A stretch of DNA of 64,000 nucleotides, taken from contig CBDBHI010000067.1 in assembly GCA_965205595.1 (NCBI GenBank), positions 207,674 through 271,673 on the forward strand. The letters run 5' to 3'. The notes under the pieces were generated by a model that saw only the letters and a list, made by a program, of their open reading frames with translations, was not told the origin of the DNA and made no database searches. Position numbers and translations under genes: made by a program. Positions 11,938 to 29,047 of the stretch are shown piece by piece. Origin of the DNA: Bryobacterales bacterium (GTDB lineage Bacteria; Acidobacteriota; Terriglobia; Bryobacterales; UBA6623). The stretch's first letter is position 1, and each line of letters opens with the position of its first letter.

Positions 11938-12151
11938 CAGAACGCGGAGCTCCTTACGTGCTCACCTAATTCGATCACCTGGCCGCATTATGAATGCCGC
12001 CCATTGGCCGGATTTGGCAGGGTTTCTGTGAAATTTCGAGCCTCCTTGCAGGGCTTTCCGCACCCTGCAGGTATAGTGTAAGGCCCGTGTGTCCGGTTTC
12101 CGGCCGACCGAATCGCTAGGTTGTTGATTTCAAAGGCAAAAGAAATTTCAA
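11938..12151 (+). repeat. Non-coding repeat, copy 1, left part (5' exon of the intron)
   Basis: About 90% identical by eye over the core to 24283-24428 and to the reverse complement of 28402-28548. Confidence 0.9.
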
Positions 12152-12431
12152 GAGCGCCGGGATAAACCGGCATGTTGTTGGGAATGAAAGAGTCCTACAA
12201 GGAAGGAGTTAGCGAGCCACCTTGGCCCCGAGTTTTGCGGACGGCGTCGCGAGGCGACGGTCGAAGCGTAAACAGGGGTGCCGGCGGGCCGGGCTATTGA
12301 GCTTCGAAAATTCTTGTCTCAGGGCGCCGACCACGTTTGAAAGATGGGAAGGCAACACGGGCGTTCGCGTGATTCGCGAGTGGACGTCCGGCCCTGCGTA
12401 GTCTGAGAACCTGAGCACGTCGAGAAACAAC

Positions 12432-13991
12432 ATGCACGAGAACCGGGAGACCTCTGGAGTGTCTCGAGCTGATCGAGACCGGTCCGAGAAGGCGCTAAGC
12501 CGAACGGCGGGCATGTACGCTCCAGAGGAGTCTGACTGCGCCGTAGTACCTGTGAACCGACCGAACAAAGAGAGGCAACTCTTGGCGGAGGCCGGGGAGG
12601 GAAGGGTGCAGACCAAGGAGAACAGCGAAGGGTCCTACACGAGCCCGACACGGAGCGGGAAAAGAGTGTCCCAAGGACTTGGAGGTGTGCGTCGAACAGC
12701 CAAAGAGAGGAGGCAGGAAAGGTTCAGCGCTTTGCTCCACCATCTGAACGTGGATCAACTACGGGAAAGCTTTTACTCGCTACAGAGAAAAGCCGCGCCT
12801 GGAGTCGACGGCGTGACGTGGCGGGAGTACGAGACCGGGCTTGAGGATCGACTGGTCGATCTGCACAGCCGGGTGCATCGGGGTAAGTATCGGGCGCAGC
12901 CCTCGCGGAGAGTCTATATCGAGAAGGCCGACGGGCGGCAACGTCCGTTGGGCATTGCGGCGCTGGAGGACAAGATCGTCCAACAGGCCGTAGTGACGAT
13001 CCTCAATCAAATCTATGAGGTCGACTTCAAGGGCTTTTCGTACGGGTTTCGACCGGGACGCGGTCCGCATCAGGCGCTCGATGCGCTGTCGGTGGGGATC
13101 GAATCCAAGCGCGTGAACTGGGTGTTGGACTGTGATGTGCGGTCGTTCTTCGACACGGTGTCGCATGAATGGCTGGACAAGTTCATCCGGCACCGCGTGG
13201 CCGATTCGAGGGTACTTCGTCTGATCCAGAAATGGCTGAAGGCGGGCATATCCGAGGAGGGCGAATGGTTGGAGACCAAGGTAGGGACTCCGCAAGGGGC
13301 GGTGATTTCACCGCTATTAGCGAATATCTATCTTCATTATGTTTTCGATTTGTGGGTGGAAGCCTGGCGCAAGAAAGTGGCAACGGGCGACGTGATCGTC
13401 GTTCGTTACGCCGACGACATTGTGGTGGGCTTTGAGCACCGGGTGGAAGCGGAACGGTTTCGGAGAGAGCTTCAAGAACGTTTCGCCAAGTTCGGTCTGG
13501 AACTTCATGCGGGCAAGACGCGGTTGATCGAGTTTGGGCGGTTCGCCGCCCAGAACCGGACGAGACGGGGCGAGGGAAAGCCGGCGACCTTCGATTTCTT
13601 GGGCTTCACGCATTATTGTGGGAAGCGCAGGAAGACGGGCACGTTTACCGTCTGGCGCAAGACGGTTAAGAGGCGGATGGTGGCGAAGCTGCATCAGTTG
13701 AAGGCAGTTCTGCGTCGCCGGATGCACGAGCCGACGGCGCTGGTCGGGGCCTGGCTGAAGCGGGTCGTCGAGGGCTTTTACCAATACCACGCGGTTCCGG
13801 GCAACTCGGATCGGCTGGCGTTGTTCCAATACCGGCTGCGCATGCTGTGGCGACGCGTGTTGTTTCGTCGCAGTCAGAAGGGACGCAAGTCCTGGAAGAG
13901 ACTCAACCGACTGTTGGACCGCTGGATTCCTCGCCCTCGCGTTCTGCATCCTTATCCGCCGGAGCGTTTCTACGCCAATCATCCGAGGTAG
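12432..13991 (+). CDS. ltrA: Group II intron reverse transcriptase/maturase (RT + X, no En domain)
   Basis: RPLGI..LEDKIVQ, SYGFRPGR, GTPQG..ISPLLANIYLH, RYADD and FDFLGF motifs. The ORF ends immediately before DV with no HNH domain. Confidence 0.96.
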   Translation: MHENRETSGVSRADRDRSEKALSRTAGMYAPEESDCAVVPVNRPNKERQLLAEAGEGRVQTKENSEGSYTSPTRSGKRVSQGLGGVRRTAKERRQERFSALLHHLNVDQLRESFYSLQRKAAPGVDGVTWREYETGLEDRLVDLHSRVHRGKYRAQPSRRVYIEKADGRQRPLGIAALEDKIVQQAVVTILNQIYEVDFKGFSYGFRPGRGPHQALDALSVGIESKRVNWVLDCDVRSFFDTVSHEWLDKFIRHRVADSRVLRLIQKWLKAGISEEGEWLETKVGTPQGAVISPLLANIYLHYVFDLWVEAWRKKVATGDVIVVRYADDIVVGFEHRVEAERFRRELQERFAKFGLELHAGKTRLIEFGRFAAQNRTRRGEGKPATFDFLGFTHYCGKRRKTGTFTVWRKTVKRRMVAKLHQLKAVLRRRMHEPTALVGAWLKRVVEGFYQYHAVPGNSDRLALFQYRLRMLWRRVLFRRSQKGRKSWKRLNRLLDRWIPRPRVLHPYPPERFYANHPR

Positions 13992-14178
13992 GAGCCCAGT
14001 GCATTAGCAGTGCACGCTGGGATCTGTGCGGGGGGTGCCGGGCGACCGGCATCCTGAGAACGGCGGAGCGAAACTAGACTATAGAGCGGCGAATCGAAGC
14101 TGCTTTTGGGCGGAGTAAAAGTAGACCGTCCGAGTGGTCCAGCGAACATTCCTGTGGTGTTTGTGGGACACGAGAGGG

Positions 14179-15678
14179 ATGTATCGCGTGGAGCTATACG
14201 CTCAAGTACGGCGCAGTGTCTTTGTCGAAGGGCTCAGTGAGCGCGAGGCCGCCAAACGGTTTGGCCTGGCGCGAGGGACGGTGCGCAAGATGTTGCGCTA
14301 CGCCACTCCGCCGGGCTATCGGCGGCGCCAACCAGCGCAGAGGCCGAAGCTGGATCCCTTCACCGGAATCGTCGATCAGATCCTCATCGACGATCAGGAA
14401 CGTCCGAAGAAACAACGCCACACCGCAAAACGCATCTTCGACCGCTTGCGCGACGAGTACGATTTCACCGGCGGTTACACGATTGTCAAGGACTATGTTC
14501 GCGACAAGAAGCTCGGCGGGCAAGAGATGTTCGTGCCGCTGGTGCATCCGGCGGGCGATGCCCAGGCCGACTGCGGTGAAGCTCTGGTGGTCATTGACGG
14601 CGTACAGCGCAAGGCGCACTACTTGGTGGTCGATCTGCCGCCTAGCGATGACGCTTTCGTAAAAGCTTTCCCGGCCGCGACGACGGAAGCGTTTTGCGAG
14701 GGGCACAACGCAGCGTTTCGGTACTTCGGCGGCGTGCCACGCAGCATCCTCTACGACAACACGACCTTGGCGCTGGCGAGGATTCTGGGCGACGGCAGGC
14801 GCAAGCGGACCAGGGTGTTCAGTGAACTGCAGTCGCACTATTTATTCTCCGATCGTTTCGGGCGTCCGGGCAAAGGCAACGACAAGGGAAAGGTGGAAGG
14901 ACTGGTCGGTTATGCCCGGCGGAACTTCATGGTGCCGGCGCCAAGGTTTCCAAGCTGGGAAGCGTTCAACGAGCAGCTCGAAGCGCAGTGCCTCAACAAT
15001 CGTAAGCGGCGCTTGCGGCGGCACACCGAAACGATTGAGGAACGTTTCAAGCGTGACCGCCAAGCGTTGTTGCCCTTGCCGCCCACGCCCTATGACGCCT
15101 GCGACAAACGCACCACGCGGGTGCCGTCGCTGTCATTGGTGCGCTATCGCGCCAACGACTACGCGGTGCCCACACGCTACGGACATCGCCAGGTGTTGCT
15201 GAAAGGCTACGTCGATGAAATCGTGATCTGTTGTGGCAGCGAAGAGATCGCGCGCCACCGGCGCAGTTACGAACGCGAAGAGTTGATCTTCGATCCGCTG
15301 CATTACCTAGCACTGCTGGAACGCAAGACCAACGCGCTCGATCAAGCGGCCCCGTTGGCGGGCTGGGAGCTGCCCGAACAGTTCCCGTGCTTGAGACGTT
15401 TGCTCGAGGCACGGTTGGGAAAGCCAGGCAAGCGCGAGTACGTGCAGGTATTGCGATGACTGGAGGACTTCCGATTCGAGCACGTTGCCGCGGCGCTGCG
15501 CCAAGCCTGCGAGTTGGGAGCGATTGGCTTGGATGCAGTCAGGCACTTAGTGCTGTGCCGCATCGAGCAACGGCCGCCGCGCTTGGACTTGACGAAGTAT
15601 CCGCACCTGCCGGCAGCCCAGGTGGAGCAAACCTCCGCTGCGGACTATTTGGCACTGCCGGCACAAGGAGGGGGGTAA
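14179..15678 (+). pseudogene. istA: IS21 transposase IstA with an in-frame TGA at 15457-15459
   Basis: DDE transposase motifs. The IstA-like C-terminus (AIGLDAVRHLVLCRIEQRPPRLDL..YP.LP) continues in frame after the TGA to a TAA that overlaps the istB ATG (TAATG). Confidence 0.85.
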
Positions 15679-16439
15679 TGGCGAGGTCGAAACTTCTGCT
15701 CGAAGCGCATTTGAAAGCGTTGCGGCTGCCAACCTTCCTGCGCGAGTACGACAAACTGGCGCGGCAATGCGCCGCCGAGAGCTTGGATTCGAGGAGCTTC
15801 CTGCAACAACTCTGCGAGCTGGAACTGCTCGACCGTGAACAGCGGGCCACCGAGCGCCGCAGCAAGGCCGCGAAGTTTCCCGTGACCAAGAGTCTGGACA
15901 CTTTCGACTTCCCGTCCTTGCCGGCGTTGAACAAGAAGCTGGTGCTGGAACTGGCGCGCTGTGAGTTTATCGACCGCCGCGAAAACGTGCCGGCACTGGG
16001 TAATTCCGGCACGGGCAAAACGCACATCGGCTTGGCGTTGGGACTGGCGGCTTGTCAGCGCGGCTATCGAACACGCTTCACAACAGCGGCGGCACTGGTC
16101 AATGAGCTGCTCGAAGCCCGAGATGAACGGCGCTTGCTGCGATGTCAAAAGCAGTTGGCCAAGCAGGATCTGCTGATCGTCGATGAACTGGGCTACGTGC
16201 CGCTATCGAAGACCGGAGCGGAGTTATTGTTCGAAGTGTTTTCCCAGCGCTACGAACAGGGCTCGACGCTGGTCACCTCGAATCTGCCGTTTAACGAATG
16301 GACGGAGGTCTTCGGCTCCGAGCGGCTGACCGGCGCCCTGCTCGATCGCCTCACGCACCACGTTCATATTCTAGAGCTGAACGGCGAAAGCTTCCGTCTG
16401 ATCCAGAGCAAGAAGAAGCGGGCTCACTCTTTGGGCTGA
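15678..16439 (+). CDS. istB: IS21 helper AAA+ ATPase IstB
   Basis: Walker A GNSGTGKT, Walker B LLIVDELG, and TSNL.F.EW...ALLDRL.HH. Confidence 0.93.
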   Translation: MARSKLLLEAHLKALRLPTFLREYDKLARQCAAESLDSRSFLQQLCELELLDREQRATERRSKAAKFPVTKSLDTFDFPSLPALNKKLVLELARCEFIDRRENVPALGNSGTGKTHIGLALGLAACQRGYRTRFTTAAALVNELLEARDERRLLRCQKQLAKQDLLIVDELGYVPLSKTGAELLFEVFSQRYEQGSTLVTSNLPFNEWTEVFGSERLTGALLDRLTHHVHILELNGESFRLIQSKKKRAHSLG

Positions 16440-16624
16440 CCCACCGGCCACTCGCCCGGTTTTCGTGGGACGGCCTCCACTACGCCTGGGCCGCCCTAAA
16501 GGGCGACCGCAGGCTCCGTTCCAGCCGTCCCACGAAAACCGCTACCCCTTCACCAACTGGTCTACTTTTGCTCCGCCGAAGTGGTCCAAATTTACTCCGC
16601 CCTTGACAGCATCCCTACCGCGAT

Positions 16625-16671
16625 AATCGCGGTACGACCGTTTGGGCGGGTTCCGTCTTGGCCGGCGCGAG
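16625..16671 (+). repeat. Non-coding repeat, copy 1, right part (3' exon)
   Basis: AATCGCGGTACGACCGTTTGGGCGGGTT..CTTGGCCG matches the continuation of copy 3 (reverse complement). Confidence 0.85.
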
Positions 16672-16684
16672 CATGCGGCTTCAT

Positions 16685-18625
16685 TTATTCCGTGGACTCG
16701 TAAGTCAGGCCGAAGCCATATTCGAAAAGTGGCTCGGCTGAGTCGCTTGGCAAATCCTCCAACTGCGCGTCAACGGCTTCCATCGATGAAGGCAATTCGA
16801 ACGGCAGCTTACCAGTCGGGTTGAACTTGCCGAACACGACATCAAGCAGCGCTTCATCACTAGCGCCAAAGGTGCCCAACACGGCGGCGGCATTCTTCGC
16901 GATCTCTGGGATCACGGCGGGTCGATCCAAGTGAATGGAGACTACGGTCGGCTTGGAGCGCAATATTTCCAGAAGACGCTTTCGCTCGTCCCCTCTAAAC
17001 GCCAGGCTGCCGAGATGGATACGTCCGAAAAAGCCCGGTCGGGTTTCGAATGCGGTTTGTAAGCGAAGGACGGCAACGTCGGCCTGCTGCAACTGATCGA
17101 CGACAGTCCCGTATTGCGCCGCGACCTGCGGATTCACGTTCTCGACATAGATCTTGGCGCCGTGCTGCAGCGGCAGCGCCTTGGCGTCATTGGCTGCTTG
17201 ATTTTTCAGCAGTACTATCGATTTCCTCTGGGCCGTATCGGCCTCCGCCTGGAACGGCTCACTGCCAACAATCTCCTTCGCTCGGTCGGGATCGACGTAG
17301 GGATTCTCAAACACTCCCAGGCTGAACTTATCTCGCAACAAGCGCCTAGCCGACTCGTCGATGCGTTCCTCTGTGACGCTGCCGCCCGTCACCAGAGTGA
17401 CGATGTGTTCTGGATTGGAATCCCCGCCAAACTGGTCGACTCCGGCATCAATTGCTTTCGCGTAGCGCTCTTCAATCGAGAGCTCATTGACGCCCCAAGG
17501 CATCAGAGTTAAAATCCCCCAGTCGCTACACACCACGCCGTCAAATCCGAGCTGCTCCCGCAACATTCCCGTGATAATTTCTTTGTTGTATGCCATGGCG
17601 ACGTTCTCGCTCGTGACGTCGGTCGGAATGCCGTAGTAGGGCATGATCTGTGCAGCGCCGGCGGCAATGGCGGCCTTGAACGGGATCAGGTGATAGTCAA
17701 AGTTGTCGCCTGGATACACCTGCTCTTGGCCGAAATCGTTGTGCGGGTCGAGGCCGTCGAGTTGTGGACCGCCACCAGGAAAGTGCTTCGTCATCGTGAT
17801 CACGCTCGTCGGACCGAGGCCACCCTCACCCTGAAATCCAACGATGTAGGCGGTGGTCATTTCAGCGGAAAGCTCCGCGTTCTCGCCGAAAGTACCGACG
17901 ATGCGGCCCCAGCGCGGCTCGGTGGCGAGGTCCGCCATGGGATGCAACGCTGTGCGAATGCCCACCGCGCGGTACTCTTCGGACGCGATCTCGCCGAAGC
18001 GCCTTACCAACTTCGCGTCAGCCGTCGCCGCCAGGCCGATCTGTTCCGGCCATTGCGAGAAAGCCCCCGCCCGAACGCTCGTGGCGTCGGGGTCGTGCCG
18101 GAATCCGTTGCGCGGATCAGAACTTATCGTTAACGGAATCCCTAGCCGAGCCGTCTCCGCCATCTCCTGGAGGTTGTTGTTCCAAGTCGCGATGACTTCA
18201 GGCCGTTCTGAGGTCCGCACGAGCACGTGATTGATCTGTTTTTTGAGAATGACCTCGCTCGTCCCCGGTTGCGGGAATCGAGGCATGCCTGGAGGACGCT
18301 TATCTTCCTCGCCGGGAACCGGTTCGAATAGGGTCCCGTTCTCCCCCATGCTCAAGGCTGGGTGCGCCATCAGGCCGGCTTTCGCTTCAATCGTCATTTG
18401 GTCAAGCAGGTCAACGACGCGCTCCTCGACCGGCAGACGCCAATCTTCATAGGGGTCAAGGCTGGCGTTCTTGTTGTGGTCTTTGAACTCATACCCCCCC
18501 ACGGTCAGAACGTCGAGACTTCGCGCGCTGAGCTGCGGCTGCGTGAACTCGGGACCGCCCGACGAACAGCCTGCAAGCATGATCATCAGTGTGGCTACGG
18601 AGAACTGAAACGGTTTGTAATTCAT
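16685..18625 (-). CDS. Glycoside hydrolase family 3 (beta-glucosidase-like), lipoprotein
   Basis: SSDPR, EPRWGR, TKHFPG, CSDWG and SIVLLKN motifs; the likely start is ATG 18625 with a LAGC lipobox. Confidence 0.92.
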   Translation of the reverse strand: MNYKPFQFSVATLMIMLAGCSSGGPEFTQPQLSARSLDVLTVGGYEFKDHNKNASLDPYEDWRLPVEERVVDLLDQMTIEAKAGLMAHPALSMGENGTLFEPVPGEEDKRPPGMPRFPQPGTSEVILKKQINHVLVRTSERPEVIATWNNNLQEMAETARLGIPLTISSDPRNGFRHDPDATSVRAGAFSQWPEQIGLAATADAKLVRRFGEIASEEYRAVGIRTALHPMADLATEPRWGRIVGTFGENAELSAEMTTAYIVGFQGEGGLGPTSVITMTKHFPGGGPQLDGLDPHNDFGQEQVYPGDNFDYHLIPFKAAIAAGAAQIMPYYGIPTDVTSENVAMAYNKEIITGMLREQLGFDGVVCSDWGILTLMPWGVNELSIEERYAKAIDAGVDQFGGDSNPEHIVTLVTGGSVTEERIDESARRLLRDKFSLGVFENPYVDPDRAKEIVGSEPFQAEADTAQRKSIVLLKNQAANDAKALPLQHGAKIYVENVNPQVAAQYGTVVDQLQQADVAVLRLQTAFETRPGFFGRIHLGSLAFRGDERKRLLEILRSKPTVVSIHLDRPAVIPEIAKNAAAVLGTFGASDEALLDVVFGKFNPTGKLPFELPSSMEAVDAQLEDLPSDSAEPLFEYGFGLTYESTE

Positions 18626-18650
18626 TAGAAATTTCTCGGTCGCAGTGACA

Positions 18651-20084
18651 TCACTTTGGCCCGCGGCTCGGTGGGGCCGGTGGTGGCATTCGGCGAGGGT
18701 TCGGATTCTTTCCCTTGAGGTACTGGTTCTCGACCGCTTTGACCGTTTGCCTATGCGCTTCGACAATCTGCTCGATACGCTTGAGCACGTCGGGATGATC
18801 TTTCGCGATGTCTAACCGCTCGCTCACGTCGTTGAGTAGGTGATAAAGCAGCGGCGGGTCGTGCGCTTCTTCCGGTGTGCGAAAGGCATAGCCGTTCCGT
18901 GTGATGAAATGCGCCTTGTACGGCCCCGATCGCGCCGCAAAGATTTTGCGATCGCGGTAGTAGATCATGTGGTCGCGAGGGCTTTCAGCGGTTCCCAGTA
19001 GAGCCCCTGAAAGATCGAAGCCATCGATCGCGCGGTCAGCGGGGATCTTAGCCCCGGCAAGCCCGGCTATCGTTGGCAGCAAGTCCAGCGTCGAACCCAT
19101 CTCGCGCACAGTTCGCGATGGGATCGTTCCCGGCCACCAGAAGATCGCGGGCACTCGCATGCCCCCTTCCCAGGTACTCTGTTTGCCGCCTCTGAGTGGT
19201 CCCGCCGAACCACCATGCGTTTGCATCAGCAACCACGGGCCGTTGTCTGACGTGAAGACGACCATCGTTTTCTCCGCGAGCCCCGTCGTTCGTAGCGTCT
19301 CGAGGACCTGGCTTACCGACCAGTCGACTTCCTCGACAACATCTCCGTACCTGCCCCCGACACTTCGATCCGCGAAGGCTTCAGAGCGGAAGAGCGGAGT
19401 GTGAGGCATGCTGTGAGCCAAGTAGAGGAAGAACGGCTCGTCTTTGTTGTTCTCAATGAAACGGATTGCTTCTTCCGTGTAGCGCCGTGTGATCGTCGTC
19501 TGGTCCGCAGGCCTTTCGACAATCTCCTCATTCCGCATCAGCGGGACGTTCCAGTATTCGACCTTGGGGTCGAAGTAAGCCTTGATGAACTGTGGCGAGC
19601 CGGGCACGCCGTCCATATCGTTCGAATAGGGAATGCCGAAATAGCTATCGAAGCCCTGGTTCGTCGGAAGAAATTGAGGCAGGTGGCCGAGGTGCCATTT
19701 GCCGACGATTCCAGTTGCGTACCCTAGGTCTTTAAGCATTTCGGCGATCGTAATTTCGCTCTCTGGCAAGCCGCCCTCGTGATAGGGAAAGAAGACTCCG
19801 CCCGACAGACCACTCCGCATCGGCAGCCTTCCGGTCAACAGCGCCGCGCGGCTCGGCGTGCAAATGGCCGCGCCAACGTAGAAATTGGTCCACTTCTGGC
19901 CTTCGGCGGCCATGCGATCTAGGTGTGGCGTCGCGATCGTAGGGCTGCCATACCCACTAAGGTCCCCATAGCCCAAGTCGTCAGCAAAGATGACGACGAA
20001 ATTCGGCCGATCTTGCCCGGCCAGCGTCAGTACCGTCGAGAGTAGGAGACACACACGGGCACAACTCCCAATCGAATAAGTCAT
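18651..20084 (-). CDS. Cys-type sulfatase (arylsulfatase A-like)
   Basis: ADDLGYGD, CTPSRAALLTGR, GKWHLG and TSDNGP motifs. Confidence 0.93.
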   Translation of the reverse strand: MTYSIGSCARVCLLLSTVLTLAGQDRPNFVVIFADDLGYGDLSGYGSPTIATPHLDRMAAEGQKWTNFYVGAAICTPSRAALLTGRLPMRSGLSGGVFFPYHEGGLPESEITIAEMLKDLGYATGIVGKWHLGHLPQFLPTNQGFDSYFGIPYSNDMDGVPGSPQFIKAYFDPKVEYWNVPLMRNEEIVERPADQTTITRRYTEEAIRFIENNKDEPFFLYLAHSMPHTPLFRSEAFADRSVGGRYGDVVEEVDWSVSQVLETLRTTGLAEKTMVVFTSDNGPWLLMQTHGGSAGPLRGGKQSTWEGGMRVPAIFWWPGTIPSRTVREMGSTLDLLPTIAGLAGAKIPADRAIDGFDLSGALLGTAESPRDHMIYYRDRKIFAARSGPYKAHFITRNGYAFRTPEEAHDPPLLYHLLNDVSERLDIAKDHPDVLKRIEQIVEAHRQTVKAVENQYLKGKNPNPRRMPPPAPPSRGPK

Positions 20085-20315: not shown

Positions 20316-20957
20316 ATGCTTTCAAGCACCCGATCAGAAATCGATCATCACACTATCAAGCTCGTAGTTGGAGTAATGACGCTATCTCTAGCAAGTTTGA
20401 CGAATTTCTTCGCGGACATTCCGATTCAATCGATCAGCGCTTCCTACCACGAAGGCGGCTGGTCTCGAGATATATTCGTAGGATTTCTGTTCGCGGTATC
20501 CGCGTTTCTGGTTGCCTACAACGGACATTCGTCCCGGGAGATGGTGCTGAGCAAGATTGCGGCCGTTGCGGCCCTCGGCGTTGCGCTGTTCCCTTGCGAA
20601 TGCGAAAATTACGAACAGATCATTCCCGGCGTCCACGGCACCTCCGCAGCCGTCATGTTCGTGATTCTAGCGGTGTTCTGCTATGGGTTCTATCACCGCG
20701 CGCTCGGCAAAGGCCACCCTCAGGCGAAGCTGCGAGCCTATATCTACGCGGTCTGCGGCATCACAATTGTCGTGTCGATTCTAGTACTTGCCATTGACAA
20801 TCTCTTAAACGACGTTATCAGCTCACGCATCGTTCGACTTACCTTCTACGGCGAGTGCGCCGGCTTAGTCGCGTTCGGAGTCTCATGGCTCACCGCAAGT
20901 CGCGCCTTACCTCTAATCACTAGTGAAGAGGAATGGCTCCCGCCCTTTGGCAACTGA
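20316..20957 (+). CDS. Polytopic membrane protein of unknown function
   Basis: About six hydrophobic segments with SIS.SYH and RDIFVG.L motifs; opposite strand to its neighbours. Confidence 0.65.
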   Translation: MLSSTRSEIDHHTIKLVVGVMTLSLASLTNFFADIPIQSISASYHEGGWSRDIFVGFLFAVSAFLVAYNGHSSREMVLSKIAAVAALGVALFPCECENYEQIIPGVHGTSAAVMFVILAVFCYGFYHRALGKGHPQAKLRAYIYAVCGITIVVSILVLAIDNLLNDVISSRIVRLTFYGECAGLVAFGVSWLTASRALPLITSEEEWLPPFGN

Positions 20958-21083
20958 GCGTAAGAGCGTACAGGATTCGGCGACAAGGTCGATGGGAATC
21001 TGAACGCGACAGCTCTCTTCATCCATACGCGGGACTGAACCGGACAGACGCCTTCGTGCAATGCATTAGCCCTGCTCGCTCTC

Positions 21084-22553
21084 TTATTCCCGCTCCGACT
21101 TTCCCGCGGTTTGTTCGCTAAGCAGGGGCACGTCTCGTTTGTCGCGTTGCATCCGCCCGTCAAACTCTCGCGCCATCGTCGTAATCCGCTCAACCACCTC
21201 GGGATGCGCCGCCGCAACGTCTGTCGTTTCCCCGATGTCGGCCTCGAGATCGTATAGCTGTGGCTGCGGCCAAAGCCGGTAGTGTCGCTCGAAGAGACCG
21301 TCGAGCATCTGGTACCACAGCGAAATCGGCATGGAAGGATAATTGTCGATCTGTAAGAACAACTTCCAGCGGCCTACGCGAACGGCCTGAAGTTGGTGGC
21401 CAAAATAGTAGAAGAACGGGCGCTCCTCAATTTCCTCGGTTTCGCCGTGCAACAGCCCCGCAATCGAGCGGCCATCGATCACGCGGTCTTTCGGCGGCTC
21501 GACGCCCGCCAGCTCGGCGATAGTTGGGAGCAGATCGAGAATCGAGGCGACTTCATCCGTTGTGCGCCGCGCTGGGATGACGCCGGGAAGCCGAAAGATT
21601 GCGGGAACGCGCATGCCGCCCTCAAACGTACTCCCCTTGAACCCCCGTAGCGGACCGGCGTCGCCGCTGCCCGCATGAATCCCAAAGCGCGCCACGGGCG
21701 CATTCCGAGTTGGGCCGTTGTCCGATGTGAAGACGACCATCGTCCGCTCGGCGATCGCTAGCTCGTCGAGCAGGTCGAGGATCTCTCCCGTACTCCAGTC
21801 GATCTCCTCGACCGAGTCGGCGTAGAGTCCGTGCTCGGAGCGCCCGTGAAATTCTTCCGAAGCGTAGACCGGGTTGTGCGGAAACGTGTGTGGTAGATAG
21901 AGGAAAAACGGTCGGTCGCGGTTCGAGCGAATGAACTCGATCGCGCGAGCGGTATAGCGTTGCGTGAGGGTTTCTTGCACCGGCGGCGCCTCGACGACTT
22001 CGTCGTTGTCGAGAAGCGGGATCTCCCATAGCCCGTGCTGGGCCCGCATCTCTTCGCCGTCGGGCTTCTTGTACATGTCATTGGAATAAGGGAGTCCGAA
22101 GAAGAACTCGAATCCTTGACGCTGGGCGCGGAAGGGCTCGGGATAGCCCAAGTGCCACTTTCCAATCGCAGCGCTGGCGTAGCCGGCGGGCGCGAGCATC
22201 TCGGCGACCGTGATCTCCTCGGGATCGAGCCCGGTCATCTCGGTCGGGAAGAGCACGTTCGGAACTCCGGCCCGGATTGGATATCTTCCCGTGAGGATCG
22301 ACGAGCGGGAAGGACTGCAGAACGGGGCCGCGGCGTAGAAATTGGTGAAGCGAGTTCCCTCGGCCGCCATCCGGTCGAGACGCGGCGTTCGGACCTTCTC
22401 CGAGCCGTAGCCGCCCAAATCGCCGTAGCCAAGGTCGTCGGCGAAGATGACGATGAAGTTCGGAGGAGGGTCCGCGGGTGGTTCAGATTGTTGGGCCCCG
22501 CAGCCGATGAATACGGCGGAGGCGAGCGCGAAGTAAAGCGCCAAGCGCGTCAT
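21084..22553 (-). CDS. Cys-type sulfatase (lipoprotein)
   Basis: CSPSRSSILTGRY, GKWHLG and TSDNGP motifs; FIGC lipobox. Confidence 0.93.
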   Translation of the reverse strand: MTRLALYFALASAVFIGCGAQQSEPPADPPPNFIVIFADDLGYGDLGGYGSEKVRTPRLDRMAAEGTRFTNFYAAAPFCSPSRSSILTGRYPIRAGVPNVLFPTEMTGLDPEEITVAEMLAPAGYASAAIGKWHLGYPEPFRAQRQGFEFFFGLPYSNDMYKKPDGEEMRAQHGLWEIPLLDNDEVVEAPPVQETLTQRYTARAIEFIRSNRDRPFFLYLPHTFPHNPVYASEEFHGRSEHGLYADSVEEIDWSTGEILDLLDELAIAERTMVVFTSDNGPTRNAPVARFGIHAGSGDAGPLRGFKGSTFEGGMRVPAIFRLPGVIPARRTTDEVASILDLLPTIAELAGVEPPKDRVIDGRSIAGLLHGETEEIEERPFFYYFGHQLQAVRVGRWKLFLQIDNYPSMPISLWYQMLDGLFERHYRLWPQPQLYDLEADIGETTDVAAAHPEVVERITTMAREFDGRMQRDKRDVPLLSEQTAGKSERE

Positions 22554-22570
22554 CGTAGTTTCTGGCAGGG

Positions 22571-23935
22571 CTATTTACCCTCGCTGATCGTCCATCCCCA
22601 GCCCTTTGGTACCTCGCCGCCGCCGTTGTAATCAGCGCTCGGCTTGAGCGGCGGGAGCGTGGCGACGAATGCGCTGTAGCGCTCGAGCATACGGTCAACC
22701 GCGTCGGGATGCATCTTCGCGACATCGTTCCGTTCTTCCGGATCTTTCTTTAAATCGAACAATCGCCAACCGTCCGGGTGCTTGACGAGACGCCAGTTCT
22801 TCCAACGTACTACGTACAAATTACGGCGCGGCGCATCCGTAGGGTCGGCGTTGTGCCAGAAGACAAACTCGTGGACATCGCCCTCTTTCTCGGCCTTAAG
22901 GTACGGCAGCAAGTTCTTGCCGTCACAGCGCTCGGGTAAGGGCTTTCCAGCAGCCGCGGCTGCCGTAGCGTAGAAGTCCAAGGTGCACATCATGCCGTCG
23001 TAAGTGATTCCGGCGGGAACAACCCCCGGCCAGGAGATGATCGTCGGCGTGTGCACCCAGCCTTCTTGCTGCGTCCCCTTGCCCTTGCCGCCGCGGTAAG
23101 GAGCGGAAGATCCGCCCTCCGTCAGATTCGCTCCGTTGTCGCCAGTCAGAAAAATGAGCGTATCATTTTCGAGATCGTGCTTCTTTAGCATGGCAAGCAG
23201 CTTTCCGACCGCATCGTCCACAGCGACGACCGCCCCTTCGTACGCGGTGCCGTCGCCCGCTTCGATGCGATCTCGATAGTGCTGCGGTGTGTCCTTGACT
23301 TTCGAGTGAACGGCGAACGGCGAGAAATAGAGAAAGAATGGTTTCTCGGCATTTCTCTCGGAGTTTCTCTCGACGAATTCAGCCATATAGTCGCCTACCA
23401 GATCAGTGAGATAAACCGGCGAGCCGTCCTCCAATTCCCGGTTGTACTGAAAGCCCGGAGCATGCCGCGCCACTTCCATGAAGCCGCGTTTATGCGGGCC
23501 CTGCTCGGACGAACCAATATCCCACTTCCCCACTTGACCCGTCACATACCCGGCATCGCGCATGAACTCGGCCATGGTGGGATGATCATCCGGAATAGGC
23601 AGTCCGCGGGCCATCCCCGACTTGCCGAACCGTTGTGCATACATTCCAGTCATCAGCGAGCAGCGGCTGGGCGAGCATGGCGGATTGGTGATGTACGACA
23701 TCGTGCACTTCGCGCCGGCAGCCGCCAGGGAATCAATATGCGGCGTCGGAATTCGCTTGTTCCCGAAACAGCCGAGATCACCAAAGCCCAGATCATCGAT
23801 GAACAGTACGACTACATTCGGTTTGCGCCCCTGATTGTTCTGCGCCGAACCCACGCTTGAGTGCAAGCCCGCGGCAACGGCGGCTGCCCCGGCCGTGCCC
23901 AGGAAGTCTCGTCGGGTGTTTCGATGAGTTTGCAT
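22571..23935 (-). CDS. Cys-type sulfatase with Tat signal
   Basis: TRRDFLG leader; CSPSRCSLMTG, GKWDIG and GDNG motifs. The start is set at ATG 23935. Confidence 0.92.
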   Translation of the reverse strand: MQTHRNTRRDFLGTAGAAAVAAGLHSSVGSAQNNQGRKPNVVVLFIDDLGFGDLGCFGNKRIPTPHIDSLAAAGAKCTMSYITNPPCSPSRCSLMTGMYAQRFGKSGMARGLPIPDDHPTMAEFMRDAGYVTGQVGKWDIGSSEQGPHKRGFMEVARHAPGFQYNRELEDGSPVYLTDLVGDYMAEFVERNSERNAEKPFFLYFSPFAVHSKVKDTPQHYRDRIEAGDGTAYEGAVVAVDDAVGKLLAMLKKHDLENDTLIFLTGDNGANLTEGGSSAPYRGGKGKGTQQEGWVHTPTIISWPGVVPAGITYDGMMCTLDFYATAAAAAGKPLPERCDGKNLLPYLKAEKEGDVHEFVFWHNADPTDAPRRNLYVVRWKNWRLVKHPDGWRLFDLKKDPEERNDVAKMHPDAVDRMLERYSAFVATLPPLKPSADYNGGGEVPKGWGWTISEGK

Positions 23936-24112
23936 ATCTGTAGCTTCATGGCCAGGCATTGAATCTCTCAGACCAGAGCCTATGTTACCGGTGTGAGCAT
24001 ATCGGTTGCAGTCAGTGAAATGGCTGCGAAGCCGCAAGAGCGAGTTGAATAGCGCGCTGCAACCGGTGATTCACGAGAATATGGTAAGTTCCCTGCCTTT
24101 CACTGAAGGGCC

Positions 24113-24447
24113 AAATGTCCGGAAATGTCCGGATTTGTCCGGTTTTCTCTGAAAATCTCTGGTCGGGGGCGATTTGCCATACTTAACAATGGTATTATGT
24201 CAAACATAACAAAGCAGAATGGGGAACTCCTCGCGTGTCCATACAAGCCAATCTCGCGGCCGCATCATGAATGCCTCGCTGTGGCCGGATTTGGCAGGGT
24301 TTTTGTGAAATTTCGAGCCTACTTGCAGGGCATTCCGCATCCTCCAGGTATAGTGTAAGGCCCGTGTGTCCGGTTTCCGGCTGACCGTATCGCTAGGTTG
24401 CTGATTTCAAAGGCAAAAGAAATTTCGAAATCGCAGGACGACCGTTT
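24113..24447 (+). repeat. Non-coding repeat, copy 2 (empty intron target at 24428|24429)
   Basis: Aligns with copy 1 and with reverse-complemented copy 3; begins with a 10-mer tandem (AAATGTCCGG)x2 + ATTTGTCCGG. Confidence 0.9.
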
Positions 24448-24458
24448 TACGTTTGTTA

Positions 24459-26206
24459 AGGGCTCCGGAAGGTGTGAAGAAATTCGGTTTTTGGCCGTAG
24501 GGCCGCGTCATTTTCGGGGGTGGTGGCTTTTTTGAGTTGATACTCGAGGTTGCCCGAAACTCGCTGAACCGTTCGCATGCCTCCGGCTGAGCAGTTTTGG
24601 CGGCTCTGAACGCTTTGATTGGCCCTTTGGGGGCGTTCCGGGGGTCGATTAGCCGGTCGGGATCAGTTCCGGTGCCAGTTTGAACAGGCGTTGCAGGTTG
24701 AACGCCGGCGCCGCCCAGTGAGCCTCGCAACTGACCTTCGCCAGACCCCTCGTTGAGAAGCGTCGCAGCTTGAATTTCGTCTTGATCCAGGCATTCGGAA
24801 ACTCAATTAACGGCGCTCGTTGCTTGTAAATCGTTTGCGCTTTCTCCGTCTCCATCTTCGCGTCAAAGCGCCGCACCGCCTCGTCATAATCTTGAATCGA
24901 CACGCTCCGTCCAGCGCTTTTTAGCTTTAAATCCGGACAGCACAACTGTTTCACCGGACACTCTCGACAGTCCTCCACGCGCGCCCGATAGATGCGGATC
25001 GTGCGCCCCTTCGGATGTTGCGTTGCTTTGCGCGACAGGCGCTTCGCTTGCGGGCAAACCAGCATGTCCGCAGCCTCGTTCCGAACGAACTTAGCGGCAA
25101 AGTAGTCTTCGTGACGCCGCGTCCCCAGACCCGTCGGCTTGGCACTTCTGCCCGTCCAACTTCCGTAGTAATCGATGCCGCGCTCGTCCCTGTCCACTAC
25201 CGACGCATGATTCGTGTAACCCCCGTCAGCAAGGGCTTCGGTGGGATATGCTCCCTGTCTCTCTTTGAGCCGGTCGATCGCCGCAAGCAGTTGCTCAGAG
25301 TCCTGCGGATCGTTGACAACCTGGACGTCGGCGATCAATCCATGCTTGCCGTCGGCTGTGATTTGTACGTTGTAGGCGGGCGCCACAGCGTTGTCGCTGG
25401 TCCACATAAACCGCGCCTCGGGATCGCTCGTTGATGCTTGTGGTTGCTTACTTTTGTTGTCCTTCCTGGCGGCCCGCAACTGCTCGATTTCATCGAGTGC
25501 TTCTGGCAACTTCTCTTCTCTGTCTTGGGCCGCGCGTTGTCGGGCTTGCTGCTGCTTTTTGGTGGTTTGCTCTTCGGCTTCTTGGCGCTCAAGTTCGTCC
25601 AAATGCTCGCGCGCCAACTTGAGATATTCCTCAATCTTGTCTTTTTGGCGAAAGCTTTTCTTGTTGACATCGGCGCGAATCTTGGTGCCGTCAACGGCCA
25701 CTCGTTGGAGAGTAACTAAGCGCTTTTTCAGCATCAGTGCAAGCACGTCCTCGAAGAGTTCGCGCAGCGCCTGGCCGTGGCCGACGCGGAAATCCGACAA
25801 CGTGTGGTGGTTGATCGGATGCAGCCCGGTGAGCCAACGCAAGGCGGGCTCGTAGTCCATTTGGCGCTCAATTTCGCGCGCCGAATGGAGGCCTTTTGTG
25901 AAGGCGTAGAGCCAGACGGAAGTGAGCACTTGGGGCGAGTGGGACGGGCGTCCGGCGACGCCCTCGACGGCGCGAACGTCGCGCTCGAAGCGGCTCAAAT
26001 CGAGCGACGAGATGAGGCGCCAGATGCGCCGGGCGACATGGTCGTCAGCGATCAGGCGCTCGACGTCGAGCGACAGCAGAAGGTGTTGGGACCGGTTGCT
26101 GGGGAGGTGGCGCGGGGAACCCTGCTCCGACATAACTTATTATACCAAATAAGTTGGCGAAACAGAGTATCGGCGACGCCTATTTTTTCACAGCTTCCGG
26201 AGCCCT
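24459..26206 (-). mobile_element. IS1182-family insertion sequence
   Basis: Terminal IRs AGGGCTCCGGAAGGTGTGAAGAAA and AGGGCTCCGGAAGCTGTGAAAAAA. No clear target duplication was seen. Confidence 0.88.
24649..26133 (-). CDS. IS1182 DDE transposase
   Basis: LI..DH.AR, HHTLSDFR, AVDGTKI.A, AYNVQ, LADGGY and Y..R...IE..(N/F) motifs. Confidence 0.92.
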   Translation of the reverse strand: MSEQGSPRHLPSNRSQHLLLSLDVERLIADDHVARRIWRLISSLDLSRFERDVRAVEGVAGRPSHSPQVLTSVWLYAFTKGLHSAREIERQMDYEPALRWLTGLHPINHHTLSDFRVGHGQALRELFEDVLALMLKKRLVTLQRVAVDGTKIRADVNKKSFRQKDKIEEYLKLAREHLDELERQEAEEQTTKKQQQARQRAAQDREEKLPEALDEIEQLRAARKDNKSKQPQASTSDPEARFMWTSDNAVAPAYNVQITADGKHGLIADVQVVNDPQDSEQLLAAIDRLKERQGAYPTEALADGGYTNHASVVDRDERGIDYYGSWTGRSAKPTGLGTRRHEDYFAAKFVRNEAADMLVCPQAKRLSRKATQHPKGRTIRIYRARVEDCRECPVKQLCCPDLKLKSAGRSVSIQDYDEAVRRFDAKMETEKAQTIYKQRAPLIEFPNAWIKTKFKLRRFSTRGLAKVSCEAHWAAPAFNLQRLFKLAPELIPTG

Positions 26207-26608
26207 CAGCCCCGATCATCGGAATCGATCCAAAATCGACATCTCAGTCGTTCAACGCATAGCCACTAAAGAATAATTTCCCGCTCAACTGGCTAAAGGC
26301 CGAAGTCGCCGAGAGGCCCATAAATAGGGAACATGAGCCCTCTAGCGGGCGTTTGGATATGCGCTCGAAGGAGAGTTTGTGGTAACGTTTGTTTTCACTA
26401 GGAATAGTTGATCACTACTCCATGCGTGCTCTAGCGTCGCTTCCAGGCAGGCATGTCGTACAATCTCAGCGTCGGAGGAGTAGGATTGCGTGCCCCAACG
26501 ATGGCGCACCGAACGGTCGAATTTTGACGCAAAACGGGACACTGAACCTGTCATCGTCATTCGGCTAGTCCCAGGTTCGCTCAGCGATTTCGAGATCAGG
26601 AAGCCCAC

Positions 26609-27976
26609 ATGGCAAAACCTTGCCTCTTGGCCGCTGCCAGCGCGCTGATCATCTCGGCTGCGGCGGACGCCCAGACTGAACTCAAAAAACCGAATCTCGT
26701 CATTTTGATGGCGGACGATTTGGGCTGGAATGACGTCGGCTATCACGGCAGCGAAATCCGAACTCCCAACATCGACACAATTGTCCGTGGCGGTGTCGAA
26801 CTAGACCGCTTCTATGCCTATCCGGCTTGCAGCCCGACTCGCGCCGCGCTGATGACGGGGCGATCTCCCGTTTCCATGGGCATCGTCGCCGCGATCCGAG
26901 ACTTCGCTCACGGCGTCCCTTTAGATGAACACCTTATGCCGGAATCCTTTCAGGCATCGGGCTACCAGACGTGGCTCCTCGGCAAGTGGCACCTGGGCGC
27001 TGATCATCGATCAGACTTTCCGCAGAGCAGGGGGTTCGACCACTTCTATGGACACCTCGGCGGCAATCTCGACTACTACAGTCATGTGTACCAAGGCCGT
27101 GTGGATTGGCAGAGAAACGGGGTCACGGTACGGGAAGAGGGCTACAGTACCGATCTCATCGCTCGCGAGGCAGTCAGCTTGCTGAAAAAGCGAAAACCCG
27201 ACAAGCCTGTATTTCTCTTTGTCTCGTTCAATGCCCCCCACTTTCCACTTGCGGCACCATCAAAGTCGGTAGCGAAGTACCTGCACATTGAGGACGAAAC
27301 TCGGCGCACCTACGCTGCGGTAGTTGATGCGATGGATGTGGCAATCGGTACCATTCTCACGACTCTGGACCAGCAAGAGATGAGCGACAATACGCTGATT
27401 CTTTGGCTTAGCGACAACGGCGGTGTCTCTCACTCCGGCGGCAGCAATTCTCCGCTGAGGGGCCTCAAGAAAAGCACCTTCGAAGGCGGCATCCGAGTGC
27501 CTGCGGCACTCAAGTGGCCGAAGGTCCTTCCGAGTGGGACTAAGTCTGATCAGATGATCGCCGTGCACGATCTCTTTCCGACACTGGCCGCCGCCTGCGG
27601 CGTTGCAGAACAAGCCACAAAACCGCTGTACGGCGAGAACCTATGGCCCGCTCTGCGAACCGGAAAGAACGTCCCACGAGGGGACACATTGATCGGAGAC
27701 GAGGATTCCTGGGCGTTCTTCCAAGATGATTGGAAATACGTCAGTTCCATTGATCCAAAGTCAGGGAAACACGAGTCAGCGCTCTTCAAGATTCGCGACG
27801 ATCGGCTTGAGCAGAACGACCTGGCGAATCGCTATCCAGAGGTGGCCCGTAGGCTCCAGGAACTGACCGATGCATTCCCGAAGAAGAACCTAATCGAGGC
27901 TGTTCCGCGAGAGCCAATGAACTACGAAGAGGACCCGAAGCTTCAGCCGGCCGCGGAAGCAGCATCCCGGGAATGA
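26609..27976 (+). CDS. Cys-type sulfatase (arylsulfatase B-like)
   Basis: ADDLGWNDVG, CSPTRAALMTGR, GKWHLG and SDNGG motifs; signal peptide. Confidence 0.93.
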   Translation: MAKPCLLAAASALIISAAADAQTELKKPNLVILMADDLGWNDVGYHGSEIRTPNIDTIVRGGVELDRFYAYPACSPTRAALMTGRSPVSMGIVAAIRDFAHGVPLDEHLMPESFQASGYQTWLLGKWHLGADHRSDFPQSRGFDHFYGHLGGNLDYYSHVYQGRVDWQRNGVTVREEGYSTDLIAREAVSLLKKRKPDKPVFLFVSFNAPHFPLAAPSKSVAKYLHIEDETRRTYAAVVDAMDVAIGTILTTLDQQEMSDNTLILWLSDNGGVSHSGGSNSPLRGLKKSTFEGGIRVPAALKWPKVLPSGTKSDQMIAVHDLFPTLAAACGVAEQATKPLYGENLWPALRTGKNVPRGDTLIGDEDSWAFFQDDWKYVSSIDPKSGKHESALFKIRDDRLEQNDLANRYPEVARRLQELTDAFPKKNLIEAVPREPMNYEEDPKLQPAAEAASRE

Positions 27977-28037
27977 GGCAAGCTGAGGCGGATGAAAACC
28001 ACAAACCAGCTTAGTACGATGAGAGCCGGGGAATTGA

Positions 28038-28293
28038 GATTGAGGAGATCAGGGACACTCAAGGAGATCCAAGGAGATCAGGGGGAGATCAGGGACACTC
28101 ACGTAACCTCGCACTGGCATGCACCCCTAAGCTGAGACAGCTTAAAAGCGGGACAGTTGCCGTTCGCTGAAAAAGTATAGCCTTTTTCGCGAACGTGCCG
28201 CACACTTGAAAACGGCCGGGAAAGCGGAGGCGGGAAACCCGTGACGGAGCCCAATTAAGGGGCGATCGGGGACACTCACGTAACCCCGCATTG
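28038..28293 (+). repeat. GGAGATC/GGGACACTCACGTAACC short direct-repeat cluster
   Basis: GGAGATCAGGGACACTC at 28044 and 28084; GATC(A/G)GGGACACTCACGTAACC.CGCA.TG at 28087 and 28264. Confidence 0.75.
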
Positions 28294-28354
28294 CCTTTAT
28301 GAATCAGCAGCTTCCAGCGATTTCAATGTTCATAAAAAGAGAGGGCGATTGAGT

Positions 28355-28717
28355 CTCGCCACGGCCAAGGCTGAACCCGCCCAAACGGCCGTCCCGCGAT
28401 TTTGAAATTTATTTTGCCTTTGGAATCAGCAACCTAGCGATACGGTCGGCCGAAAACCGGACACACGGGCCTTACACTATATCTGGAGGTAGCGGAAAGC
28501 CCTGCAAGGAGGCTCGAAATTTCACAGAAACCCTGCCAAATCCGGCCAATGGGCGGCATTCACGACAGGGCCTGGGGATCGGCTTGCATGAGCGCGCGAG
28601 GAGTTCCTCGTTCTGATTTGTGGAGTATGACGGAATTCAAATGGCAAATCTGGCGGGTCGCCCCGGCCGGCGATTTTTAGAGAAACCCTGCCCAATCCGG
28701 CCCAATCCGGACATTTC
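28355..28717 (-). repeat. Non-coding repeat, copy 3, inverted (empty intron target at 28401|28402)
   Basis: The reverse complement aligns with copies 1 and 2, including the uninterrupted TTTCAA|AATCGC site. Confidence 0.9.

Positions 28718-28971: not shown

Positions 28972-29047
<76 letters not shown>

Follow-up and report, generated by a model that had tools for sequence, protein, structure and literature searches.

A multicopy intergenic repeat family of Bryobacterales: a possible small transcription unit that appears to serve a group II intron as homing site

Repetitive extragenic palindromic (REP) sequences, bacterial interspersed mosaic elements (BIME) and enterobacterial repetitive intergenic consensus (ERIC) sequences are insertion targets for mobile DNA, including the insertion sequences (IS) IS1397 and ISKpn1 (IS3 family), IS621 (IS110 family) and the REP-associated group II introns of Pseudomonas. 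Multicopy small-RNA families whose members have their own promoters, some of them in tandem, include Qrr1-5, LhrC1-5 and the NsiR1 arrays, and the LDR and QUAD/Sib loci of Escherichia coli are type I toxin-antitoxin loci that were first seen as long intergenic repeats. The group II introns aI1 and aI2 of yeast mitochondria retrohome with one-sided co-conversion of the 5' exon; we know of no bacterium in which RNA-templated 5'-exon co-conversion has been established. Here we describe an intergenic repeat family present in three copies in a 64,000-nucleotide stretch of DNA from a Bryobacterales bacterium (Acidobacteriota; contig CBDBHI010000067.1, positions 207,674 to 271,673), the whole of which is referred to below as the window. 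The family is undescribed, having no Rfam family, no annotated record and no mention in the literature searched, while the kinds of locus that it resembles, namely multicopy small-RNA genes and intergenic repeats serving as IS or intron targets, are already known. Our preferred explanation, to which we give about an even chance, is that each copy is a small transcription unit and a member of a multicopy non-coding locus restricted to the Bryobacterales lineage.

Like REP, BIME and ERIC sequences, the family is multicopy, extragenic and non-coding, receives an IS3 element at a fixed position and orientation by a palindromic motif, and is the target of a group II intron. It differs from REP and BIME sequences in its unit, which is 350-580 bp long with a non-palindromic conserved core of about 165 bp and a promoter-like box, whereas a REP sequence is a palindrome of 20-40 bp; no RAYT-type gene was seen, and the intron target lies in the core rather than in a palindrome. 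With the Qrr, LhrC and NsiR1 families it shares a conserved upstream region, a -10-like box, a conserved 5' segment, a T-run, tandem duplicates and a poorly structured, seed-like segment. Unlike theirs, its transcription is a prediction; it is present in at least 11 copies per genome, some truncated or interrupted, and yielded no Hfq-type terminator or covariation. The LDR and Sib loci are comparable in size (300-530 bp), intergenic position and copy number, and their embedded promoters have a putative counterpart here, but the present family has no conserved small hydrophobic open reading frame (ORF). As in miniature inverted-repeat transposable elements (MITEs), the units are non-coding, shorter than 600 bp, dispersed and multicopy; unlike MITEs, they have no terminal inverted repeats or target duplication, no parent IS among the elements near the copies, ragged left ends and uneven conservation. 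As with aI1 and aI2, two copies share an identical intron and adjoining 5' exon, against an identity of only 83% in the 3' exon, but the intron is bacterial, a single pair of copies is concerned, and it is from the sequences that we infer an RNA template for the tract. What is less usual about the locus is that one non-coding sequence carries three mobile elements, nested or site-specific, and that one-sided 5'-exon co-conversion is seen in a bacterium.

Family members were collected with a 19-mer from the core, GTAAGGCCCGTGTGTCCGG, which was scanned for exact matches over one genome per species (185,579 species). This yielded 11 loci in one Bryobacterales metagenome-assembled genome (MAG; chromosome OZ252030.1, 8.55 Mb), spread from 0.97 to 8.09 Mb, and one chance match, and the corresponding scan of metagenomes gave two true members, both from one sample, and three chance matches. 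A search for relatives of the intron reverse transcriptase (RT) led to an ENA contig from another assembly, L022 (labels of this form are our own), with a further copy of the family (nhmmer E 2e-68 and 2e-33). Together with the three copies of the window this makes 17 copies from at least four sources. An earlier sequence-only reading of the window had proposed a dispersed element rather than a local three-copy duplication, and the presence of at least 14 copies elsewhere, 11 of them around the MAG chromosome, bears this out. No flanking gene is common to any two family loci, window included. Pairwise identity of the copies is 78-92%, and identity between genomes is as high as within a genome.

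Searches of the reference collections returned no relatives of the repeat. With Rfam 15 at the gathering threshold, the whole window contains only RF02005 (the intron) and a tRNA; scans by E-value covered positions 11700-16800 (E up to 1) and 24000-29200 (E up to 5) and brought up no credible family for the repeat, the nearest matches on or by it being FTX_2 (E 2) and CPEB3 (E 1.1), far under their gathering scores. The repeat thus belongs to no Rfam family at either stringency, and, as far as tested, it is not the end of a known IS or MITE. A blastn search of the family against plasmids and phages gave no match, the 19-mer is absent from viral contigs, and a full-text literature search found no account of such a repeat in Acidobacteria. 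A phage, plasmid or viral origin was rejected. A 20-mer match in viral contig L021 (IMGVR_UViG_3300042544_001926, positions 4427-4452, GGCCGGATTTGGCAGGGTTTGGCAGGG) falls within intergenic DNA rich in iterons, its surroundings bear no relation to the family, and chance alone would give about one match of such length.

Homology between the copies extends at most from about -347 to about +250 relative to the 19-mer. Columns between the GGCCGGATTTGGCAGG motif (-75) and ...AAATTTCAAAATCGCGGGACGG (+90) have a mean identity of 0.90-0.99, the peak being at consensus positions 300-460; for 100 nt downstream the value drops to about 0.75, and upstream to 0.4-0.65. The peak is partly due to selection by the 19-mer, the surrounding plateau of 160 bp is not. 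A conserved core between decayed flanks argues for selection on the core, and such unevenness speaks against a mobile element that moves as a unit, since this would give uniform divergence. Upstream, short repeats with a period of 10 bp (ATGTCCGGAA, CCGGATTTGG) set T-tracts in helical phase. They are followed by a TTTC-N3-GAAA palindrome, by TTGCAG and, after 20 nt, by a TATAGT box, and the box in turn by the invariant segment GTAAGGCCCGTGTGTCCGGTTTTCGG, an A/U-rich conserved stretch that holds the intron site, and a GC-rich region. At about +120 to +140 there is a small GCGAG/TCGC hairpin and then TTTTAT; downstream of these lie a partial echo of the middle segment (ATCGCTGGAAGCTGCTGATTCATAAAGG) and, last, the motif GGGGTTACGTGAGTGTCCCCGATCTCC, after which homology stops. 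The 3' motif GGGGTTACGTGAGTGTCCCC is palindrome-like and, in the window and all fetched loci, is present only within the family.

The upstream modules, A and B, are by their sequence decayed tandem duplicates of the core unit: module B opens with a second GGCCGGATTGGGCAGGGTTTCT, and module A holds TAAGACCCGTGTCACCGGCTTT, which is 82% identical to the core box. Module B is missing in L004, L007, L008 and L022, the core unit stands by itself in L001, L006 and L012, and in L009 the 3' part is tandemly duplicated; some new copies may arise by such tandem duplication. The left boundaries are ragged: counted from the 19-mer, they range from -97 to about -347. Terminal inverted repeats are absent, as the right end GTGTCCCCGATCTCC, when reverse-complemented, does not give the left motif (ATGTCCGGA repeats, or CGCCGTGGTTGC). 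Nor are the family copies bordered by direct repeats of the kind that a target-site duplication would leave. Taken with the uneven conservation, this is at odds with the MITE-like nature that the sequence-only reading had offered as one alternative.

The evidence that a group II intron really uses the family as its homing site comes from the sequences of the junctions and of the intron itself. In copy 1 of the window, fusing position 12151 to 16625 recreates an uninterrupted AAATTTCAA|AATCGCGG, as in the other copies. The intron of L022 is 99.8% identical over 2050 nt and is inserted at the same phosphodiester bond and in the same sense orientation. The sequence TTTGAAA in domain I of the intron complements the last six exon bases, TTTCAA, together with the first base of the 3' exon, as expected of exon-binding site 1 (EBS1) and an adjacent delta; TTCTT is able to pair with AAGAA at -12 to -8 and is a candidate EBS2. 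All unoccupied family copies keep the intron target, exactly or with one mismatch. Three relatives of the intron (L023, which is 5'-truncated, L024 and L025), with RTs that are 84-88% identical, have other EBS1 bases and unrelated exons, and in L024 the intron sequence TGCCGGA matches its own exon end, TCCGGC. The 5' end departs from the GUGYG consensus, reading GAGCG in the window (12152-12156), in L022 (9721), in L024 (640) and in L025 (about 38); this is a lineage variant, and the other hallmarks of a group II intron are unaffected by it. The last 75 nt of the L022 intron form two hairpins of domain V/VI type with a 2-nt bulge each (z = -3.95), the domain VI hairpin having a bulged UA, and the intron ends in ...CUACCGCGAU (3' ...CGAU). 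RF00029 was not reported in the Rfam E-value scan of the intron region.

The sequence-only reading had recognised the group II intron in copy 1 and overlooked what lies inside it. The insert of 4473 bp consists of the 1.9-kb intron and a nested 2554-bp element of the IS21 family, which L022 lacks, so that there are three levels of nesting, from repeat to intron to IS21. The IS21 element has the ends TGAGAACGGCGGAG... and ...CTCCGCCCTTGACA and a 6-bp target duplication, GCATCC (14049-14054 and 16609-16614), which was set by comparison with the intact L022 intron, and its proteins match NF033546 (271 bits) and NF038214 (278 bits), both over cutoff. As the element sits in domain VI, the copy of the intron in the window is probably disabled for splicing.

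The comparison of copy 1 with L022 also bears on how the intron moved. Downstream of the box and its invariant segment, the remaining 5' exon has no mismatch in 52 positions, while the 3' exon has 8 in 47, which indicates that the intron moved with its 5' exon and without its 3' exon; mismatch counts for all intervals, with those of the other copies, are listed in Table 1. The upstream modules of the two copies differ, L022 being without module B. The converted tract begins between 12066 and 12099, an interval that brackets the predicted start site at about 12084, as placed by the TATAGT box. The simplest reading of these sequences is that reverse transcription of an unspliced donor transcript continued beyond the intron into the 5' exon, and if so, the unit would be transcribed from the TATAGT box. 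A group II intron in sense orientation needs a transcribed host site in order to splice and move. The co-conversion is seen in one pair of intron-bearing copies.

The family is also the target of an IS3-family element of about 1.57 kb, which is present in L004, L005, L006 (internally deleted), L007 and L010 at one site and in the orientation of the family, just 5' of the GGGGTTACGTG... motif near the family 3' end. The element has the left end TGGAGTGCACCCCAAAACTGAGACAG and the right end ...TTAGGGGTGCATGCCA, matches NF033516 (265 bits; cutoff 160), and shows a two-ORF transposase, TG...CA inverted repeats (TGGAGTGCACCCC pairs with GGGGTGCATGCCA) and a 3-bp duplication, as is typical of the IS3 family. 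Where both junctions are visible the target duplications are TTA, TTG and TGC, each from the sequence of the host copy itself, and the elements of L004 and L007 share 97.5% identity in host copies that share 82.6%. IS3 copies that are more alike than their hosts and have differing duplications point to separate, recent insertions into older targets, in at least three copies of the family. A right-end remnant of the same element lies beside copy 3 in the window and had escaped the sequence-only reading. That reading had placed copy 2 next to an IS1182-family element, and the element indeed begins 11 nt past the last homologous base; its transposase matches NF033551 (381.8 bits; cutoff 270). IS630-family elements adjoin three copies (L001, L005 and L011). 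The earlier notion of the repeat as a niche for mobile DNA is therefore upheld by the same intron site in two copies, the fixed IS3 site in five copies plus a remnant, and the IS1182 and IS630 elements that adjoin others.

At the junction of copy 2 and IS1182 (24448-24458) we observed TTACGTTTGTTA followed by AGGGCTCCG, the IS1182 end, and the same arrangement recurs downstream of L001, at about +245 relative to the anchor, with no more than a short IS1182-like end remaining; TTACGTTTGTTA may be a preferred IS1182 target or part of the IS1182 end. The window further contains an IS630-family transposase gene (55583-56653, minus strand) with about 75% DNA identity to the IS630 elements beside L001 and L005.

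Taken together, the uneven conservation, the upstream duplicates, the box, the hairpin with its T-run, and the sense-oriented intron with its conversion tract fit a small transcription unit. On this explanation the phased T-tract repeats (of the CCGGATTTGG type), the TTTC-N3-GAAA site and the -10-like TATAGT box would drive transcription, which would start a few bases into the invariant GTAAGGCCCGTGTGTCCGG. The predicted RNA would be about 135 nt long, its first 85 nt or so conserved in sequence and not in structure, and would end at the weak GCGAG...TCGC hairpin and TTTTAT, with the GGGGTTACGTGAGTGTCCCC motif about 45 nt beyond. The activity of the box as a promoter and the production of a discrete small RNA are what we infer from this arrangement, and such an RNA would most plausibly act by base-pairing regulation through its unstructured conserved 5' region. 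The mobile elements would exploit the family because it is conserved, multicopy and apparently tolerant of insertions, the core offering a safe and always available target. The group II intron would retrohome in sense orientation into TTTCAA|A through EBS1/delta pairing and spread from copy to copy, carrying with it the transcribed part of the 5' exon, and the IS3-family element would insert in one constant orientation immediately 5' of the 3' motif. A fuller version of this account, which we put forward as tentative and clearly more doubtful than the transcription unit itself, is that of a Bryobacterales-specific small-RNA gene family whose transcript is the homing site of an intron with RNA-templated 5'-exon co-conversion, whose 3' hairpin is a dedicated IS3 target, and which as a whole is a non-coding safe harbour for three classes of mobile DNA.

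Tests for coding capacity agree with the sequence-only reading, which had noted no conserved ORF. The only recurrent ORF of any size (41 amino acids, +43 to +169) is hydrophilic and broken in 5 of 13 copies, and its variable columns are distributed 33/24/29 over the codon positions, with no excess at the third. A coding role of this ORF and of a recurrent one of 13 amino acids was rejected for this lack of codon-position bias and for frameshifts, stops and non-triplet indels. The other alternative of the sequence-only reading, a promoter or non-coding RNA unit, fits better than a MITE but comes without covariation and without a canonical sigma-70 site. The TATAGT box is kept in 12 of 16 copies. 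The T-run behind the small hairpin is retained in nearly all full copies, the stem can be aligned with it in most of them, and a terminator scan detects the two together in copy 3. A sigma-54 promoter was considered and rejected, as the GG-N10-GC spacing occurs in one copy only.

Several results weigh against a small-RNA locus. The copies were gathered via an exact 19-mer, which inflates the apparent conservation around it. RNAalifold over 200 columns gives -8.3 kcal/mol with a covariation term of +0.14 and double changes in 3 of 23 pairs, although the power to detect covariation is low among copies that are 80-92% alike; folds of six single sequences have z-scores of -1.1 to +0.5. A structured RNA was rejected as a candidate, since both the ACGGCC/GGCCGT helix and the terminator stem show uncompensated mismatches. 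The constraint, as judged from the alignment, is on primary sequence and not on RNA structure. The box reads TATAGA or TATAGC instead of TATAGT in two copies, no canonical sigma-70 promoter is found in a scan of the consensus, where the TTGCAG-TATAGT spacer of 20 nt is non-canonical, and the terminator stem is weak, with 4-5 bp of GC. The converted tract, finally, could stem from gene conversion at the DNA level that happened to end there.

The main rival to the small transcription unit is a non-autonomous mobile element of MITE-, REP- or PATE-like type, moved in trans, whose core would be the recognition site of the mobilising enzyme and in which other elements merely accumulate. We regard this as unlikely, though not negligible. 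It would account for the dispersal of the family to non-syntenic positions in different genomes, for an identity between genomes that reaches 92% and equals that within a genome, for the fairly sharp right boundary after GTGTCCCCGATCTCC and for the short iterated motifs by both ends (left ATGTCCGGA, right CCCGATCTC). What it leaves unexplained are the ragged left ends, the absent terminal repeats and target duplications and a divergence that is strongly uneven along the unit; nor is there a match in plasmid, phage or viral collections, or a common candidate transposase in or by the copies besides those of IS3, IS630 and IS1182, which have ends of their own. The ends of the IS3-, IS630-, IS1182- and IS21-family elements near copies are unrelated to those of the family.

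Two other explanations are less likely still. The family could be a module acting at the DNA level without a stable RNA, such as a curved, protein-bound promoter or operator cassette or a nucleoid-protein platform that in some copies drives or insulates neighbouring genes; the best-conserved stretch does include 80 bp upstream of the putative start with the 10-bp-phased T-tracts and TTTC-N3-GAAA, conservation is in sequence and not in RNA structure, and the terminator part is missing from copies 1 and 2, which face into adjoining DNA. This ranks below the mobile element in our estimate: the downstream genes are inconsistent and often convergent (GH3 at copy 1, a sulfatase at copy 3, genes by L003, L009 and L011), conservation runs about 85 nt beyond the box into the putative transcript, and the sense-oriented intron requires a site that is transcribed. 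Least probable of all, to the point of being improbable, is a decayed remnant of a larger mobile element, either the end or attachment site of an integrative element at a tRNA, or a passenger sequence of IS3. Two copies do have a tRNA upstream, tRNA-Asn at a distance of 145 nt in the case of copy 3 and tRNA-Thr in that of L011, but 14 of the 16 scanned copies have no tRNA nearby and no integrase is present, and a tRNA-linked integrative element was therefore rejected. Six copies are joined to an IS3-family element or its remnant, and the family 3' motif resembles the IS3 inverted repeat (GAGTG.CCCC); against this, the IS3 elements have complete inverted repeats and 3-bp duplications of their own and are younger than their hosts, and at least 10 copies are without any IS3 element.

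The copies in the window were compared in a repeat search over 11000-30000, which recovered all three copies of the core of about 165 bp described by the sequence-only reading, copy 3 being inverted. Copy 1 matches copy 2 in direct orientation (11937-12160 and 24214-24437, 85%) and copy 3 in inverted orientation (11938-12160 and 28393-28615, 87%; for its 3' part, 16625-16671 and 28355-28401, 87%), and copies 2 and 3 match as inverted repeats (24166-24447 and 28383-28664, 83%, extended by 24113-24168 and 28661-28716). The similarity that had been noted beyond the core between copies 2 and 3 is thus real, but copy 3 is longer than had been claimed, running from about 28829 to 28250. An internal duplication reported in copy 3 was also recovered (28520-28547 and 28675-28702, 89% identity). 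The window contains exactly three matches to the 25-mer TATAGTGTAAGGCCCGTGTGTCCGG and four to the GGCCGGATTTGGCAGGGTTTCT motif, against 0.00 expected from shuffles in either case, and a profile built from all family members found no additional copy across the 64-kb window. The 5' part of copy 1 stops at the intron insertion site, with the intron-binding site IBS1 (TTTCAA) at 12146-12151, and 14 nt separate the end of its 3' part from the stop codon of GH3, a gene that runs convergently. Copy 2 has one mismatch in the intron site (TTTCGA|AATCGC), and its homology ends after 24447. Table 1 gives the features in order of position.

Table 1. Positions of the repeat copies, their parts and the associated elements in the window, with mismatches between copy 1 and L022
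Feature	Position	Strand	Remarks
Copy 1, 5' part	11937..12151	+	Module B remnant; core from 12005; TATAGT box 12072-12077; invariant 5' segment; nhmmer E 4e-86
Copy 1 vs L022, upstream of box	12003-12071		5/69 mismatches; other copies vs copy 1, 4-38
Copy 1 vs L022, box and invariant segment	12072-12099		0/28 mismatches; other copies 0-2, uninformative
Copy 1 vs L022, remaining 5' exon	12100-12151		0/52 mismatches; other copies 3-12
Group II intron, 5' segment	12152..14054	+	Starts GAGCGCC
Intron domains I-IV RNA	12189-12411	+	RF02005, 176.6 bits (gathering 49), full model 1-225
Intron EBS2-like TTCTT	12311-12315	+
Intron delta and EBS1, TTTGAAA	12336-12342	+
Intron RT/maturase ORF	12432-13991	+	TIGR04416, 348.3 bits (cutoff 300); RVT_1, 1.3e-39
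Intron domain V	~13992-14026	+
Intron domain VI, 5' strand	~14029-14054	+
IS21-family element in intron domain VI	14055..16608	+	IstA 14134-15459; IstB 15231-16439
Intron 3' end	16609..16624	+	Duplicated GCATCC, then CTACCGCGAT, with domain VI bulged A and 3' AU
Copy 1, 3' part (AATCGCGGTACGACCGTTTGGGCGGG...)	16625..16671	+	Truncated ahead of terminator-like hairpin
Copy 1 vs L022, 3' exon	16625-16671		8/47 mismatches (83% identical); other copies 5-30
Copy 2	24113..24447	+	Module B and core; TATAGT box 24349-24354; nhmmer 24045-24447, E 3e-111
IS1182-family element	24459..26206	-	25-bp inverted repeats 24459-24483 and 26182-26206 (92%); transposase 24649-26133
Second, tandem 3' motif beyond copy 3	28037..28114	-	Motif 28108-28087, then short GATCTCC-type repeats
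IS3 right-end remnant	28115..28236	-	About 120 bp; ends ...TTAGGGGTGCATGCCA; 92-95% identical to L004, L006, L007
Copy 3	28250..28829	-	Most complete in the window; nhmmer E 2e-157
Copy 3, 3' motif GGTTACGTGAGTGTCCCCGATC	28285-28264	-
Copy 3, terminator-like hairpin	28360-28344	-	Then T-run
Copy 3, intron site	Between 28402 and 28401	-	Unoccupied
Copy 3, core	28549-28384	-
Copy 3, TATAGT box	28481-28476	-
Copy 3, module B	28706-28550	-
Copy 3, module A	28829-28706	-	Degenerate box copy 28777-28756
tRNA-Asn(GTT)	28973..29047	-	About 145 nt upstream of copy 3, same strand; context only

Copies 2 and 3 (24113-24447 and 28383-28716) are inverted repeats of about 335 bp with 83% identity, and enclose 3.9 kb that contain the IS1182 element and one sulfatase gene. 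Such a composite-like arrangement could permit inversion, though the identity is low for homologous recombination.

The genes by the copies encode a TonB-dependent receptor, a GH3 glycosidase and several sulfatases, and a protein with a 'Solibacter C-terminal domain' is encoded in the window. Positions 6483-7958 and 16685-27976 make up a sulfatase-rich cluster of the polysaccharide-utilisation type, with five sulfatases, GH3 and a TonB-dependent receptor with a carboxypeptidase-regulatory-like domain. In a search for orthologous loci with an empty site, neither the GH3 nor the sulfatase protein was found on record. A sulfatase that is 92% identical lies on a 1.8-kb contig whose downstream DNA diverges from the window right after the gene, and a homologue with 72% identity is not syntenic. 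Relatives of GlnE on long contigs are at most 68% identical, and the MAG with 11 copies is not among them.

Two further intergenic repeats were observed. One, unrelated to the family, is about 110-200 bp long, and its copies in the window, the Bryobacterales MAG and L022 show 80-91% identity; the window copy occupies 58868-59075, just upstream of an ORF (59090-60262), with no Rfam match at the gathering threshold, and the others are at L001 2988-3173, L012 1424-1572 and L022 12579-12689, 12943-13026 and about 20595-20706. The other is about 70 bp long and 84-90% identical, and is found in the window at 46242-46314, between genes for DctP and DctQ/M-type TRAP transporter proteins, at L004 5843-5915, and at L022 12507-12558 and 12853-12929.

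The Acidobacteriota are, to our knowledge, abundant in soil and have almost no described regulatory RNAs or repeat families. The family described here offers a definite candidate: 17 copies are available, the core is delimited, and both start and end are predicted. Because a retrohoming intron and an IS3 element each target one exact nucleotide position of a single non-coding locus, the family lends itself to the study of how mobile DNA chooses sites that are harmless and always available. The one-sided co-conversion marks the likely start of the transcript and, if it is RNA-templated, would be an instance of retrohoming by a route uncommon in bacteria. In genome annotation, recognition of the family explains nested insertions of repeat, intron and IS21 that would otherwise look like noise.

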